A stretch of DNA of 64,000 bases. Origin: a virus. Taxonomy: Duplodnaviria > Caudoviricetes. The translations under genes and the position numbers were made by a program. The DNA lies in the IMG/VR virus record IMGVR_UViG_3300030099_003199, positions 1-64,000 of that record; one strand, written 5' to 3'. The notes under the pieces are model-generated. The model was not told the origin of the DNA, made no database searches, and worked only from the letters and a program-made list of their open reading frames with translations. Shown in pieces: positions 26,987-62,908 of the stretch. Within the stretch, counting starts at the first letter, position 1. Each line of letters starts with the position of its first letter.

Positions 26987-27326
26987 TAAGAATTTTATAA
27001 TCTAATAAAATAGTACCGTCAACTTGCAATTGTATGTCATTTGATAAAAGAATTTTTTTATTATCTTTTTCAATTAAGCCTTTGTTTTTAGCTTTTTGAA
27101 TTGCATTTCTGCAAGATTGTGCGCTTTTAAATATTTGTTTTTCTGAAATAACTTTACAAAATTTGTTTAATTCTGTATTTTTTAATTTACCTAATTCAGC
27201 TAAACATTCTAAATCAGCTTTGCTAATTTGAATATTATTTAAAAAACAATAAGTAACTATTTGATATTTAATAATATCATCTCTAGATACTTTAATTCTT
27301 TTATCAACTTTTTTTACGACAGCCAT
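26973..27326 (-). CDS. Putative winged-HTH DNA-binding protein
   Basis: 'SAQSCRNAIQKAKNKGLIEK' recognition-helix and wing pattern. Confidence 0.5.
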   Translation of the reverse strand: MAVVKKVDKRIKVSRDDIIKYQIVTYCFLNNIQISKADLECLAELGKLKNTELNKFCKVISEKQIFKSAQSCRNAIQKAKNKGLIEKDNKKILLSNDIQLQVDGTILLDYKILSVEE

Positions 27327-27937
27327 GTTTTTACAATATCATTGCTGTTAAGTAGAGTATAAGTAAAACTGTTACTCCAAGTATCTCTTGCTTTTCTCAT
27401 GATTTTCATAAAAAATCTCCAATCATCATTATCAGCAATTACTTGGCAACCAGCTGACCACTTATCAATCTGTGTTGACTTTTTTCCAGCATATTTAGTA
27501 GCTCTATGAATATTTATACCAAATAAACCTGTATCTAAATTTTCTGTATTTAAATTATATATATCATCTCTATTATTATCTCTATATACAGTAACAGGTT
27601 TACATTGACCTAAAGCTTCATATCTACCTTGATGTTTTCTAATTTTATGAGATCCTCTATATTGTCCTTCTTTTAGTATTGCAGTACCTTTTGATTTAAC
27701 AATAGGGGCATCCATATAGTGTGATCCTGGATCAGTTGTGCAATCAAATTCATAATACTTCCATACTCCATCTTCTTTAAAAGATATAGTCATAGTATCA
27801 TCAAATCTATTTGTAACACGTCCTTCAGTTTCAGCATTTCTGATTCCTACAATATTTACATTGTAATCACCAGTATCAAACCATTTATAACCTTTTTTTT
27901 CTAAGGTTCTTTTTATTTGTTCTTGACTATACTTCAT
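27314..27937 (-). CDS. Putative cell-wall enzyme/endolysin with a YkuD (L,D-transpeptidase)-like catalytic motif
   Basis: 'GINIHRA....IDKWSAGCQV' fits H-x(n)-S-x-G-C. Also 'NIVGIR', 'TTDPG', 'YRDNNRD'. Confidence 0.6.
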   Translation of the reverse strand: MKYSQEQIKRTLEKKGYKWFDTGDYNVNIVGIRNAETEGRVTNRFDDTMTISFKEDGVWKYYEFDCTTDPGSHYMDAPIVKSKGTAILKEGQYRGSHKIRKHQGRYEALGQCKPVTVYRDNNRDDIYNLNTENLDTGLFGINIHRATKYAGKKSTQIDKWSAGCQVIADNDDWRFFMKIMRKARDTWSNSFTYTLLNSNDIVKTWLS

Positions 27938-59198: not shown

Positions 59199-60035
59199 AT
59201 GGCCATAAAGCGTCAAGTAACAAAAACATTAGTAACAAAAACAAATAATAACAGTAGTGATTGCATAGCTCCTAATATAATCTATGGATGTATGGGGGGT
59301 TGTGTAAACACTTACTGTTATATGTCTAGATTTAACGGACGTAGAGTATTTGTTAATACTAATGTTAATGACATATTTAATTCTGTTCTTGCTTGGGAGG
59401 CGGGCTATACTAAAGTCCCTAACCAGCAAGATCCAGTATATACAATGGTAGACATTGCATGCAACTCAGATTTAGTTCTGATGCAAAAGCATATGCCTGA
59501 ACCATTACATGATTACCTTAAACGCTTTGATGATCATCCACAACTTAATAGTACTATGGCTACTAAGTATCCGGGTCTTCTTAAACTTGACGTTAATCAT
59601 TTTAATAAACCACCTAGAGTAAGAGTAAGTCTTATGCCTCAAGCTTATTCAGATGTATTAGAACCTAAGATGCAAAAAATTGAATCTAGAATACAAGATA
59701 TTAATAGACTTAAGGATTTAGGATGGGAAGTACATTTAAATTTTTCTCCACTTATATTTATGCCAGGCTGGTCTAAACATTATGATAAGTTATTTAAACG
59801 TGTTAAAGAAGTAGCAGGTGAAAATAAATGTGAAGTTATTGCATTGACCAATCATGTTAATCAAATGATTAAAGCTAGTGATGAGGCTCGTGAGATTATG
59901 AAATATTCTGATGAAGTTAAAAATGGATCAGGAGTGATGCGCTATCCAATAGCAAAGAAGCATAAACTTTTAGAAATGTTTAAACAAATCTATGCAAACT
60001 ATTTTGACATAGGAACAATAAGATACATATTCTGA
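59199..60035 (+). CDS. Spore photoproduct lyase-family radical SAM protein
   Basis: 'GCMGGCVNTYCY' cluster motif; 'DIACNSD' (like the SplB Cys141 region ASCTSD); 'ATKY', 'RVRVSL', 'HLNFSPLI', 'MRYP'. Confidence 0.8.
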   Translation: MAIKRQVTKTLVTKTNNNSSDCIAPNIIYGCMGGCVNTYCYMSRFNGRRVFVNTNVNDIFNSVLAWEAGYTKVPNQQDPVYTMVDIACNSDLVLMQKHMPEPLHDYLKRFDDHPQLNSTMATKYPGLLKLDVNHFNKPPRVRVSLMPQAYSDVLEPKMQKIESRIQDINRLKDLGWEVHLNFSPLIFMPGWSKHYDKLFKRVKEVAGENKCEVIALTNHVNQMIKASDEAREIMKYSDEVKNGSGVMRYPIAKKHKLLEMFKQIYANYFDIGTIRYIF

Positions 60036-61120: not shown

Positions 61121-61492
61121 CTATTTTCTTTTTCCTCCGTGGTATGCTACTGCATGACCTTCAGAGATTAATAAATCATTTACACAGATCATGGTGAGTT
61201 TATCAGATCCATCTACTCTATCAATTGATAGTTTACCTAGACATCTTCCAAACTTACCTACACCTTGTGAATCTAAAAGTATTTTATCACATCCTTCTAA
61301 TAGAGTTTTAAGTCTATCCTTAGCTGCAAGACCTTTTTTCTTTTCTTCAAGGTCTCTTGTTCTTGACTCAGGAGTATTAATACCAGCAAGTCTTATACGT
61401 TTTTTAACTTTTACACTAAAACCTAAATCAATATAAGCATCAATAGTATCTCCATCAATAACTCTAATTAAGTCAATCTGATAAGAATACAT
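61121..61492 (-). CDS. Staphylococcal nuclease (thermonuclease)-like protein
   Basis: 'RVIDGDTI', 'RIRLAGINTPE', 'GKFGRCLG', 'VNDLLISEGHA'. Confidence 0.9.
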   Translation of the reverse strand: MYSYQIDLIRVIDGDTIDAYIDLGFSVKVKKRIRLAGINTPESRTRDLEEKKKGLAAKDRLKTLLEGCDKILLDSQGVGKFGRCLGKLSIDRVDGSDKLTMICVNDLLISEGHAVAYHGGKRK

Positions 61493-61497
61493 TTTTA

Positions 61498-61566
61498 TTA
61501 GCTGTTGTGAGAACCATCACAGTTCCCATTTTCATCTTTTGTTTTACCACATACACATTGTGCCAT
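61498..61566 (-). CDS. 22-aa CDGSH-type iron-sulfur micro-protein
   Basis: Translated by hand: MAQCVCGKTKDENGNCDGSHNS. TAATG coupling to the holin stop. Confidence 0.6.
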   Translation of the reverse strand: MAQCVCGKTKDENGNCDGSHNS

Positions 61567-61958
61567 TATTTCTTTGTTTTTTCTAATGATCGTCCACCAA
61601 AATAGGCACCAATCACAGTGATTAATACTAATTGTAATAGATCAGTCCATTTAGCTTCAACAACAAAGTTAATAACACCTGCATCAATAAATATTAATAG
61701 CACTGTGCTTACAACCAAGAATGCTAAAGTTAATGGTCTAATATTTTTAGATAGCCATGAGTCAGACTTCATATCTGCTTGCCATCTGGAAGTTATTTCT
61801 TTTTCCATTTGGACCTCATAAGTAGCTACAAGTTCTTTCATTTTTTGTTTAGCAGCTAGCTTTTCTTCATCTGAAGTGTGTAGTCCATCAATGACACCAC
61901 CAACACTTTCAACAAGATCTTTAGCTCCTCCACTAAATATAGTTCCTAGTATGCTCAT
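61566..61958 (-). CDS. Holin (3TM/GTA-type)
   Basis: 'SDEEKL', 'RWQADMKSDSWLSKNIRPL', two TM helices, 'AYFGGRSLEK'. Start taken at MSILG (61958). Confidence 0.75.
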   Translation of the reverse strand: MSILGTIFSGGAKDLVESVGGVIDGLHTSDEEKLAAKQKMKELVATYEVQMEKEITSRWQADMKSDSWLSKNIRPLTLAFLVVSTVLLIFIDAGVINFVVEAKWTDLLQLVLITVIGAYFGGRSLEKTKK

Positions 61959-61959
61959 C

Positions 61960-62136
61960 TTATCTTTCTCCACCACATCCGCAGCCTTTTGATGTTTTTC
62001 TTGGCTTTGGTGCTCTAGTTGTTAATTTAGTCAATAAACTTCTTTGACCTCCATTTTTACCTACAGGTAATGCTTTGTTAGATTTACTATAACTACCACC
62101 ACTCCCGTATGTTTTCATTTTATATGTTCCTGGCAT
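61960..62136 (-). CDS. 58-aa basic Gly-rich peptide
   Basis: Translated by hand: MPGTYKMKTYGSGGSYSKSNKALPVGKNGGQRSLLTKLTTRAPKPRKTSKGCGCGGER. Confidence 0.55.
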   Translation of the reverse strand: MPGTYKMKTYGSGGSYSKSNKALPVGKNGGQRSLLTKLTTRAPKPRKTSKGCGCGGER

Positions 62137-62140
62137 AATA

Positions 62141-62233
62141 TTATTTTTTTAAGCAGCAGTCTGGTCCACACCAGCCTAAGCATACTTTATTAAACGTTAT
62201 CTTACATAATAAAATACAAATAAATTTCTTCAT
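62141..62233 (-). CDS. 30-aa six-cysteine peptide
   Basis: Translated by hand: MKKFICILLCKITFNKVCLGWCGPDCCLKK. It sits 4 nt from both neighbours. Confidence 0.5.
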   Translation of the reverse strand: MKKFICILLCKITFNKVCLGWCGPDCCLKK

Positions 62234-62237
62234 AACC

Positions 62238-62471
62238 TTAAGATTTTTTAATTTTTTCAAATGCACTAATACCAAAACACCCTAATGTTACCATAACAAA
62301 GGAGTTATATATAGTGTCGTTAATTTCTAATTCTCCTCCTCCTACGTATCCCATATACATAACTGCAGTACCTAAATCTATAATAGCAAACAGTACCATA
62401 ACAGCAAAAGATATAAATCCAACTACATTTTTTTCATTTATATCATTTTTATCTTTAAACAATTTCCACAT
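62238..62471 (-). CDS. Two-TM membrane protein (holin/antiholin-like)
   Basis: From MWKLFKDKNDINEK: two hydrophobic helices and 'GCFGISAFEK'. The track ORF 62238..62537 has an implausible upstream extension. Confidence 0.55.
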   Translation of the reverse strand: MWKLFKDKNDINEKNVVGFISFAVMVLFAIIDLGTAVMYMGYVGGGELEINDTIYNSFVMVTLGCFGISAFEKIKKS

Positions 62472-62473
62472 AA

Positions 62474-62908
62474 TTATCTTCTTTGTATTACATCTAAATA
62501 TCCATCTTCTTTTTCTCCAGTAACTGTATCTATCCATACAGCAACTATAGGTTCATTAGTGGGATCTCCACATTCAAATGTCATATAATCCATATAAACA
62601 TCCTTTAAAGAAAGCGTTGCACCTAAAGGAATCTCTGTATTATATTGTAACATCAATGCTATATCAGGAGGATTTAATTCAGTTGTTAAAACTCCTCCAG
62701 AAAAAGATGCTCTATTAAATACAGCTACATGTATAGTACAAGGGCCTGCTCCTATGTTTGTAAATGTTACTTCTTTAAATTTAGCAGTGTCAGCATTATT
62801 AGGAGACACAGGAGTAACTGATGAGCCACATTTATCAATGGCTGTCCATTCACGAACTTTTAATACTCTTGTTCCTAATGCATGTACGGGATTTACTGTT
62901 ACTGCCAT
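62474..62908 (-). CDS. Putative virion beta-sandwich protein
   Basis: 144 aa with 'TFTN' and 'EIPLGATLSL'. Confidence 0.45.
   Translation of the reverse strand: MAVTVNPVHALGTRVLKVREWTAIDKCGSSVTPVSPNNADTAKFKEVTFTNIGAGPCTIHVAVFNRASFSGGVLTTELNPPDIALMLQYNTEIPLGATLSLKDVYMDYMTFECGDPTNEPIVAVWIDTVTGEKEDGYLDVIQRR

Follow-up and report, generated by a model that had tools for sequence, protein, structure and literature searches.

The closest described relatives of the gene analysed here are the CDGSH iron-sulfur domain (CISD) proteins, whose domain bore a zinc-finger annotation before its 2Fe-2S cluster was demonstrated (PMC5859297, PMC3174974). Their published motif is C-X-C-X2-(S/T)-X3-P-X-C-D-G-(S/A/T)-H (PMC5859297, PMC3174974), and its full form has 17 residues, Phi-C-X-C-X-X-(S/T)-X-X-X-P-Phi-C-D-G-(S/T/A)-H, with flanking hydrophobic positions (PMC3174974). 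In the available text of Lin et al. 2011, an integral CISD is made only when the Fe-S module is joined by a beta-sandwich module for dimerisation, which comprises an N-strand and a lid-proline P-motif (PMC3174974), and the shortest CISD mentioned in the available parts of the two papers has 53 residues (PMC5859297, PMC3174974). Here we describe a gene of a marine phage for a protein of 22 amino acids that is little more than a variant of this motif. It lies at 61498-61566, on the minus strand, of a 64-kb window (the whole stretch of DNA analysed), which is the first 64 kb of the 114,846-base IMG/VR virus record IMGVR_UViG_3300030099_003199 (rated 100% complete; 30.5% G+C). Phage terminase, portal, major head and DNA polymerase genes are present in the window. 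The explanation that we find somewhat probable overall is that of a real motif-only CDGSH mini-protein, with a probable metal centre, that is an accessory of the holin module.

The product of this open reading frame (ORF) is MAQCVCGKTKDENGNCDGSHNS. All four putative ligand positions are filled, by C4, C6, C16 and H20, with three residues ahead of the first Cys and two after the His, and the order of the set (C-x-C ... C-x3-H) is that of the CISDs. There are six residues between Thr9 and Cys16 against five in the canonical motif, and 18 residues in the loop against 17; we refer to the two spacings as x6 and x5. The ATG (61566-61564) and the TAA of the holin gene upstream (61568-61566) overlap by one base and read TAATG. 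The TAA of the mini-ORF (61500-61498) is followed by 5 nt (61497-61493) and then by the ATG (61492) of an SNase-type nuclease gene. The preliminary description of this ORF had reported just such a layout, together with a bare motif that has all four ligands, one extra loop residue and no Pro, and the sequence agrees with it in every detail. No transmembrane (TM)-like window or signal peptide was found in the 22-residue peptide.

A degenerate DNA pattern for C-x-C-G-x-T-x6-C-D-x-[ST]-H matches once in the window, against 0.00 matches expected from 100 shuffles. In a six-frame search of the whole record the Pfam zf-CDGSH model gives the mini-ORF as its single match (13.6 bits, E 0.012, model positions 23-48 of 48).

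We scanned the same family pattern in IMG/VR and in one genome per prokaryotic species. A search for short CDGSH ORFs in phages had been named beforehand as one check on this gene, with a lack of conservation speaking against it. The x6 motif was found in at least 120 IMG/VR loci, and all 120 that are listed have it at the protein level. In 86 of these 120 the motif ORF is at most 60 amino acids long, typically 21-30. An alignment (A1) of 65 distinct peptides of at most 45 amino acids has the consensus xxxxxKCxCGxTxNPxGxCDGSHLxx, and the window peptide carries every residue of its invariant columns (C4, C6, G7, T9, G14, C16, D17 and H20). In the listed IMG/VR loci mini-ORF starts overlap the upstream gene (-4, -11 or -1), and the stops lie 2-5 nt ahead of the next gene.

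Further, and beyond the preliminary description, the peptide has many relatives, and the family is common on bacterial chromosomes as well. The cellular scan gave at least 120 loci, and 101 of the 120 listed have the motif at the protein level. The remaining 19 are matches of the DNA pattern only; eight of the ten with titles listed are Streptomyces. Members are ORFs of 25-30 amino acids in Flavobacteriia (Polaribacter, Cryomorphaceae and others), of 25-26 in Paenibacillus and Brevibacillus and of 49 in acI Actinobacteria, and in Opitutales they are tandem pairs of bare x6 motifs (54-63 amino acids). As far as its sequences tell, this is a large, mostly uncalled family of proteins of 21-45 amino acids in marine and freshwater phages and in bacteria, with the core C-x-C-G-x-T-x-[ND]-x-x-G-x-C-D-G-[ST]-H.

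A profile (A3) of 70 members was searched against 1.84 billion representatives of clusters at 50% identity, and it found 365 proteins at E<=0.001, 20 of them at E<=1e-10. Among the best 150 matches 133 have only the x6 spacing, 6 only x5, 5 both and 6 neither, and the median length is 54 amino acids. A homologue search with a 43-residue member returned 5 close relatives only. When ten family sequences were looked up exactly among 15 billion proteins, six were absent, that of the window included, and forms of 22-30 amino acids were mostly absent. Four proteins of this representative set look eukaryotic (P0043, of 94 amino acids, P0047, P0080 and P0088): in one, three bare x6 motifs come after an N-terminus that resembles a transit peptide, and the others are multi-repeat proteins in which x5 alternates with longer loops.

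Neither the 22-residue peptide nor the other x6 members searched matched a family in PHROGs or NCBIfam, and Pfam gave nothing or 10-17 bits for other x6 members. The 49- and 63-residue cellular members are named 'CDGSH-type Zn-finger protein' by JGI/IMG and hypothetical by NCBI. In a tblastn search of 50,697 GenBank phage records the 22-residue peptide matched nothing at E<=10, so no cultured phage carrying the gene can be named; a family member of 29 amino acids gave one chance-level match (E 5) in the GenBank phage records, and blastn of the region against the 50,697 phages matched a piece of the nuclease gene only. What is already known is the motif and its chemistry, and automatic IMG names tie some of the longer members to CDGSH. 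In the literature on CDGSH with phages, YceI, small proteins or bacterial evolution, we found no description of the motif-only family, its x6 branch, its abundance in phages or its linkage to holins; the supplements of Lin et al. 2011 include an 'orphan group', among which short motif-only sequences could figure. The words 'phage' and 'virus' are both unmentioned in the available parts of PMC5859297 and PMC3174974.

Loci collected through the neighbouring genes, 80 via the holin and 80 via the nuclease, give a sample that is independent of the motif. Across these loci five peptide variants are found in the same slot: MAQCVCGKTKDENGNCDGSHNS, M(M)GQCVCGKTKDENGNCDGSHNS, MKKCACGKTKDKDGNCDGSHAKSCKK, MAKKCTCGKTSSQDGSCDGSHKEVCSK and MSKCTCGLTKAEDGSCDKSHESCKE. 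Synonymous and non-synonymous codon differences among them are equal in number, and the residues C, C, G, T, G, C, D, S and H are unchanged. The 109 distinct DNA cores from the listed IMG/VR loci tell the same at positions left free by the pattern. The Gly two residues before the third Cys is kept in 105 of them and is encoded by all four Gly codons; the CDG Gly is kept in 96, and an N or D two residues past the Thr in 92. Counted over the motif instances listed, the first of these Gly residues is found in 116 of the 120 viral cases and in 104 of the 111 cellular ones. Conservation of free positions combined with synonymous codon turnover argues for selection on the protein, and it indicates that ORF 61498-61566 is a real, selected and conserved gene and not a product of chance.

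The TAATG overlap and the 5-nt gap would also fit a functionless ORF that serves only to pass ribosomes from the holin gene to the nuclease gene, or an ORF that arose by chance, and that 77 of the 80 closest holin loci lack a mini-ORF behind the holin points the same way. Such an ORF, however, would not be expected to keep one core beside quite different genes in at least 120 viral and at least 101 cellular loci, to show synonymous turnover at its invariant residues, or to have relatives in 365 clusters at E<=0.001 among the 1.84 billion representatives, and 0.00 pattern matches are expected in the window. The conservation appears to bring this idea close to being refuted, and we regard it as extremely unlikely.

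How the x6 loop is related to the canonical one can be judged from three kinds of comparison. When the family profile was compared with the PDB, six of the seven matches at E<=10 were CDGSH proteins: 3TBM (E 0.049), 3TBN, CISD2 three times and At-NEET. The alignment places CqCGnTqnpdGyCDGSH over CRCGHSLNKP-FCDGSH, with a gap of one residue within the loop (3TBM and 3TBN loops). Further, there are orthologous proteins that carry either loop. Two WYL_2 fusions, 52% identical (E 1e-41), have an x6 loop (L164) or a canonical x5 loop with Pro (L407) at the C-terminus, and in a second pair (47% identity, E 5e-18) L177 has x6 and L436 has x5. Finally, some two-motif proteins that score above the Pfam cut-off (45-87 bits) combine an x5 with an x6 loop (P0135, P0163, P0125 and P0047). 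From the PDB matches, the x5/x6 orthologues and these mixed proteins, the x6 loop can be recognised as a homologous, one-residue-longer variant of the CDGSH cluster-binding loop, sharing common descent with the canonical loops, and it is in this form that the CDGSH-type core claimed in the preliminary description is borne out.

The canonical x5 spacing is present in at least 120 IMG/VR loci (L403-L522), and 120 of the 121 instances listed have the Pro. Bare x5 mini-ORFs of 24-45 amino acids make up 37 of the 121, and the bare canonical motif of L409 scores exactly 29.5 bits, which is the Pfam cut-off. Given these bare x5 forms and the homology of the loops, motif-only CDGSH proteins are a general phenomenon, of which the window peptide represents the x6 branch. 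The x5 motif also occurs as an N-terminal tag on 2OG-Fe(II) oxygenases of about 280 amino acids; x5 examples are L413:293-364, L405:1869-1964 and L409:5136-5975.

The preliminary description coupled the peptide to the holin gene, and this coupling recurs in diverged phages. A homologue of the window holin is found in 48 of the 120 listed x6 loci, on the same strand in all 48 and with holin identities of 31-100%. The distance between holin and mini-ORF is at most 1 kb in 43 of these loci and at most 100 nt in 9; the holin is upstream of the mini-ORF in 16 and downstream in 32. Holins of the window type are found in none of the 120 listed x5 loci, which are similar in total length, in 11 of the 80 nuclease-anchored loci and in 1 of the 120 listed cellular loci. 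In phages, a nearby phrog_3427-type holin on the same strand is a trait of the family, in the window to the point that the mini-ORF start overlaps the holin stop, and it is not universal. In general, membrane proteins are frequent around the mini-ORF. A TM-like stretch is present in 71 of 149 mini-ORF neighbours against 165 of the 939 remaining ORFs in these loci, a figure that is inflated by relatedness, and 49 of 82 non-redundant mini-ORFs have at least one TM-like neighbour, these counts not being phylogenetically independent. An M15 endolysin adjoins the mini-ORF in 6 listed phage loci. The arrangement shows the phage mini-gene riding in the holin module, apparently translationally coupled to genes of small membrane proteins.

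A link to the SPL-like radical SAM gene, which lies 1.5 kb away, did not fare as well. The idea is that the peptide acts as an Fe-S donor or electron relay for this enzyme, and there is some ground for it in the proximity of the two genes, in the SPL-like homologues of 8 of the 120 listed x6 loci, and in P0147, a protein with a weak, sub-threshold match to a B12-binding domain and bare CDGSH repeats at its N-terminus. In the window, however, the two genes are on opposite strands, the other 112 listed loci have no SPL homologue within the fetched flanks, which are of limited length, and the cellular members have other neighbours. A donor role of this kind is very unlikely, and in phages the x6 branch tracks one holin family and not the radical SAM gene. 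The SNase-type nuclease was considered as a conserved partner and rejected, its homologue being present in only 4 of the 120 listed loci. We also considered and rejected a -1 frameshift that would fuse holin and motif. Upstream, 25 codons are open in the -1 frame, but the run of A close to the holin end does not form a slippery heptamer in the holin frame, and a frameshift is also disfavoured by the family normally having its own ATG beside varied upstream genes.

A small gene tightly coupled to a holin gene, in an arrangement that recurs across diverged phages, recalls the antiholins and other regulators of holin timing, such as lambda S107, T4 RI and P1 LydB. The likeness ends there: the peptide has no TM or signal-anchor segment and no sequence relation to these proteins, its ORF is distinct, starting at an ATG of its own in a frame other than that of the holin, and most close relatives of the holin are without it.

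The bacterial members pair with YceI and redox genes and not with lysis genes. In Flavobacteriia a YceI gene is immediately upstream of the mini-ORF in 40 of the 81 mini loci within the listed L283-L402 (e.g. L349:7110-7718), and in L304, L335, L361 and L398 the motif is itself the cytoplasmic N-terminus of a TM-anchored YceI protein, fused to it through a hydrophobic segment. Genes for FMN reductase, MarR and HxlR are other frequent neighbours in Flavobacteriia. In Paenibacillus the neighbour is a nitroreductase, and in acI Actinobacteria there are a DCC1-like thiol-disulfide oxidoreductase and a photolyase-related protein.

Fusions extend the list of partners. In one Flavobacteriales genome (L320:2554-3732) a RicT/YaaT homologue, which matches NF041131, 'regulatory iron-sulfur-containing complex subunit', at E 1.8e-76, has the x6 motif as its C-terminal tail, and in two Opitutales-type genomes (L357:957-1511 and L399:7221-7820) ribosomal protein S16 has such a tail. 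Further partners are 2OG-Fe(II) oxygenases and WYL_2. In phages, the x6 motif ...MSKTQCRKNGGCACGRTENPNGLCDGSHLK closes proteins of 440-590 amino acids that contain both an XkdF-type protease domain and a DUF3721 Cys/His element (L187:1914-3677, L203, L266 and L271). An iron and redox theme seems to run through the fusion partners and the cellular neighbours. Peptides near-identical to those of phages are found in Flavobacteriia behind YceI genes, among redox-stress genes, and phages probably took the gene from hosts such as these.

Most likely there is one metal centre, with the three Cys and the His as its ligands. We favour a [2Fe-2S] cluster, at about an even chance, because apart from the ligands the conserved residues are the ones seen in the Fe-S loop, because the loop is interchangeable with the canonical one within true CISDs, and because the partners are of iron and redox type. 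The same four residues could instead hold Zn(II), and the peptide would then be a tiny zinc-binding knuckle, a structural or protein-binding mini-domain that serves as an adaptor on membrane or virion proteins without any Fe-S chemistry. The beta-sandwich that completes the Fe-S site of a CISD is absent, proteins of many kinds carry the module as an appendage, which is common for zinc knuckles, and Zn-dependent M15 endolysins adjoin 6 of the mini loci. Further, several close variants have a fifth Cys 3-4 residues past the His (L003, L026, L086, L220 and L272), and the slot after the holin is in other phages filled by Cys-rich peptides that look like generic metal binders (MCNCKECNCGTSCECTCCNC, in L040 and L044). 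The names point to zinc as well, both that of the Pfam model and 'CDGSH-type Zn-finger protein' for relatives in IMG.

Classical zinc knuckles and ribbons are built from paired C-x2-C (or C-P-x-C-G) knuckles. The window peptide has C-x-C and C-x3-H and no C-x2-C, which does not in itself speak against the binding of zinc. More telling is that the conserved residues other than the ligands (the G after C-x-C, the S/T, the N/D, and D-G-S before the His) belong to the Fe-S loop and that the loops are interchangeable in orthologues and in Pfam-passing CISDs. The partners also lean towards iron and redox chemistry (RicT, 2OG-Fe(II) oxygenases, nitroreductase, FMN reductase). As to names, the CDGSH domain itself was once annotated as a zinc finger before it was found to bind 2Fe-2S (PMC5859297, PMC3174974). 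We therefore consider the zinc knuckle fairly unlikely.

Compared with known systems, the likeness is closest to the single-motif prokaryotic CISDs (types 3 and 4 of Lin et al. 2011), to which the best PDB match, 3TBM, belongs; they share the ligand order and C-x-C-G-x-[ST]-x-N...C-D-G-S-H. The window peptide differs from them in being the loop alone, with 22 amino acids and one residue more. Two-motif CISDs comprise type 6 (PDB 3TBN) and the MiNT/CISD3 class. Some natural two-motif proteins above the Pfam cut-off carry an x6 loop like that of the window beside a canonical loop; they keep fold elements between the motifs, unlike the window peptide and the tandem bare forms of Opitutales. The NEET proteins (mitoNEET/CISD1, CISD2 and At-NEET) have the CDGSH signature and the 3Cys-1His order in common with the peptide, and the CISD2 and At-NEET matches of the profile cover the CDGSH end of the motif only (E 0.5-1.1). 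They are membrane-anchored dimers with a beta-cap, elements that the window peptide does not have. The 49-residue acI and 63-residue Opitutales proteins have the same x6 core and belong to the same family, but none of them is phage-borne or linked to a holin.

A number of observations count against an Fe-S accessory of the holin module, and they should be seen together. The 17-residue motif is not reproduced: the loop has six residues instead of five, there is no Pro, the residue ahead of the first Cys is a Q, and G-N stand ahead of the third. Across the family the third Cys often has a Y, F or L before it, with an invariant Gly and a Pro that has moved or is missing. The peptide stays below the cut-off of Pfam PF09360 (13.6 bits in six frames against 29.5), and hmmscan finds nothing at E<=1. 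It has no N-strand, no lid-proline P-motif and no beta-sandwich. One close relative (L003/L084) has CDKSH in place of CDGSH, so the signature Gly is not obligatory. AlphaFold2 (AF2) models are moderate or poor, with a predicted local distance difference test (pLDDT) value of 73 for a 56-residue fusion and 58.9 for a tandem form. Having different spacing and lacking the Pro, the flanking hydrophobic residues, the beta-sandwich and a Pfam score above the cut-off, the window peptide should not be filed as a CISD domain.

The holin side has its own difficulties. The mini-ORF directly follows the holin in only 3 of the 80 closest holin loci, so the holin does not need the mini-protein, which is dispensable for the holin itself. 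Three other loci of the 80 have different Cys-rich mini-ORFs in the slot, twice of the MCNCKECNCGTSCECTCCNC type with 20-21 amino acids (L040 and L044) and once a relative of the second Cys-rich ORF of the window (L025), and the slot could be a permissive site for small accessory genes. The association with the holin may also partly reflect the shared ancestry of one marine phage lineage. Fusions to XkdF-type/DUF3721 proteins, WYL_2 and S16 suggest a generic module that is not specific to lysis, and it is possible that the gene is a passive accessory picked up from Flavobacteriia-like hosts.

If the motif-only peptide does bind a cluster, the cluster might be stabilised by the pairing of two peptides or by a partner, since the beta-sandwich of full CISDs is absent. 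A predicted complex of two peptide copies (with alignment A1) and two 2Fe-2S clusters scored 0.12 against a mark of 0.42, which counts neither for nor against the cluster, the chain being shorter than those of the calibration set. A bare loop without a shielding fold would hold its cluster weakly, which would suit a sensor or a donor better than a stable electron carrier. The mini-protein could then be a cytoplasmic accessory, sensitive to redox state or iron, that modulates membrane partners. Synteny with the holin, together with the membrane-proximal theme shared with the YceI fusions, makes a role in holin triggering and lysis timing plausible, though we judge it unlikely. The most far-reaching version would be that CDGSH-loop peptides of 21-30 residues are the smallest gene-encoded Fe-S proteins, holding a labile [2Fe-2S] cluster without the CISD fold. 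In that version marine phages would have captured them from Flavobacteriia-like hosts and coupled them translationally into holin modules as cytoplasmic redox or iron sensors, so that the moment of lysis is tied to the iron or oxidative state of the host; as a whole this is quite improbable.

A small, Cys-rich product that adjoins membrane proteins, with a radical SAM gene in the region, might also bring to mind the precursor of a modified or exported peptide, like a bacteriocin or a ribosomally synthesised and post-translationally modified peptide, that is released at lysis. There is, however, no leader and core architecture, signal peptide or TM-like segment in it, and no conserved modifying enzyme or transporter alongside. 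Its invariant residues are a known set of metal ligands, and the motif is also an internal or terminal domain of cytoplasmic proteins (RicT and ribosomal S16). A peptide precursor is hardly credible on these grounds.

Should the peptide and its hundreds of relatives bind a cluster, they would redefine the minimum for a natural CDGSH Fe-S site, which in the available text of the published classification includes the beta-sandwich (PMC3174974), and they would offer a natural scaffold of 22 residues for Fe-S chemistry. A mini-protein of metal or redox type paired with a holin family points to a candidate input into lysis control that has not been described. Should it be a zinc knuckle or a passive passenger, there would still be a well-delimited family of small proteins and a clear case of micro-gene transfer from host to phage. 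Most of the family is missed by gene callers, and no model in Pfam, NCBIfam or PHROGs captures it, so current annotation does not reveal how widely it occurs in ocean phages and abundant aquatic bacteria (Flavobacteriia, acI Actinobacteria).

The genes of the region are listed in the table below. On the minus strand they form a string in the order 99-residue membrane protein, 30-residue Cys-rich ORF, 58-residue basic ORF, holin, 22-residue ORF, nuclease and then ORFs of 53, 90 and 139 amino acids. They are small and tightly packed, with gaps of -1 to 20 nt.

Table. Coordinates in the 64-kb window of the mini-protein gene, its motif and other features.
Feature	Coordinates	Strand	Basis
22-residue motif-only CDGSH-like mini-protein gene	61498..61566 (stop codon included)	-	ORF and overlaps; sole genomic zf-CDGSH six-frame match; same-slot variants; family
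Motif core CVCGKTKDENGNCDGSH, three Cys and one His, six-residue loop from Thr to third Cys	61507..61557	-	single pattern match; codon-level conservation; PDB profile alignment
Holin, phrog_3427 type, 136-residue ORF	61566..61976	-	phrog_3427 'holin' E 5.4e-32
SNase-type endonuclease, 123 residues, 5 nt downstream of the mini-ORF	61121..61492	-	PF00565 E 8.8e-9; phrog_452 E 3.3e-34
58-residue basic Gly-rich ORF, ends KGCGCGGER	61960..62136	-	between the 30-residue Cys-rich ORF and the holin
Second Cys-rich mini-ORF, 30 residues, MKKFICILLCKITFNKVCLGWCGPDCCLKK	62141..62233	-	kept in related phage contigs; fused to a CDGSH-like motif elsewhere
Small membrane protein, 99-residue ORF, one strong hydrophobic stretch	62238..62537	-	head of the string
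SPL-like radical SAM gene	59199..60035	+	PF20903 E 4.2e-18; 1.5 kb from the mini-ORF, opposite strand
Probable endolysin	27314..27937	-	phrog_33083 'endolysin' E 1e-16; phrog_3000 (function unknown) E 8e-34

The holin has one TM-like hydrophobic stretch, and Pfam GTA_holin_3TM (PF11351) matches it at 21.7 bits, under the cut-off of 24.8. Its relatives in tblastn are genes of Vibrio, Nonlabens and other phages that are annotated as holin and often adjoin endolysins. The relatives mostly align from residues 7-9 of the ORF as listed from GTG 61976, and ATG 61958 sits one base past the TAA of the upstream 58-residue ORF; ATG 61958 appears likelier as the start than the GTG. Contigs of four RNA-library runs span only 61818-62300, and the mini-ORF is outside this stretch. 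The probable endolysin is 34 kb from the holin, inside the structural region, and matched no Pfam family. In the relatives L004-L006 an endolysin homologue directly follows the holin, and the window protein is 60% identical to that of L004.

Of the other genes in the string, the 58-residue ORF matched no Pfam or PHROG family and has homologues in 3 of the 120 listed x6 loci. The 99-residue membrane protein has homologues in 9, including all four loci with the 56-residue fusions described next.

The second Cys-rich mini-ORF, which the preliminary description did not mention, matched no Pfam or PHROG family. It is kept in L002, L003, L008, L026, L073, L088, L090, L184, L195, L272 and L280, and the relative in L025 directly follows the holin. 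In four phage contigs (L166, L169, L193 and L229) there are proteins of 56 amino acids in which the x6 motif is followed by a module homologous to this ORF, with 52% identity to L193 (alignment A5). In the AF2 model of the fusion residues 19-42 form a helix, and the two Cys-rich ends are loops.

Another type of mini-ORF, M(K)CNCKECNCGTSCECTCCNC, has 20-21 amino acids with 9-10 Cys and a metallothionein-like look (L040:3402-3464 and L044:2547-2612; also L029, L050, L067 and L161). In two of these contigs, L040 and L044, it fills exactly the post-holin slot that is held by the CDGSH-like ORF in the window.

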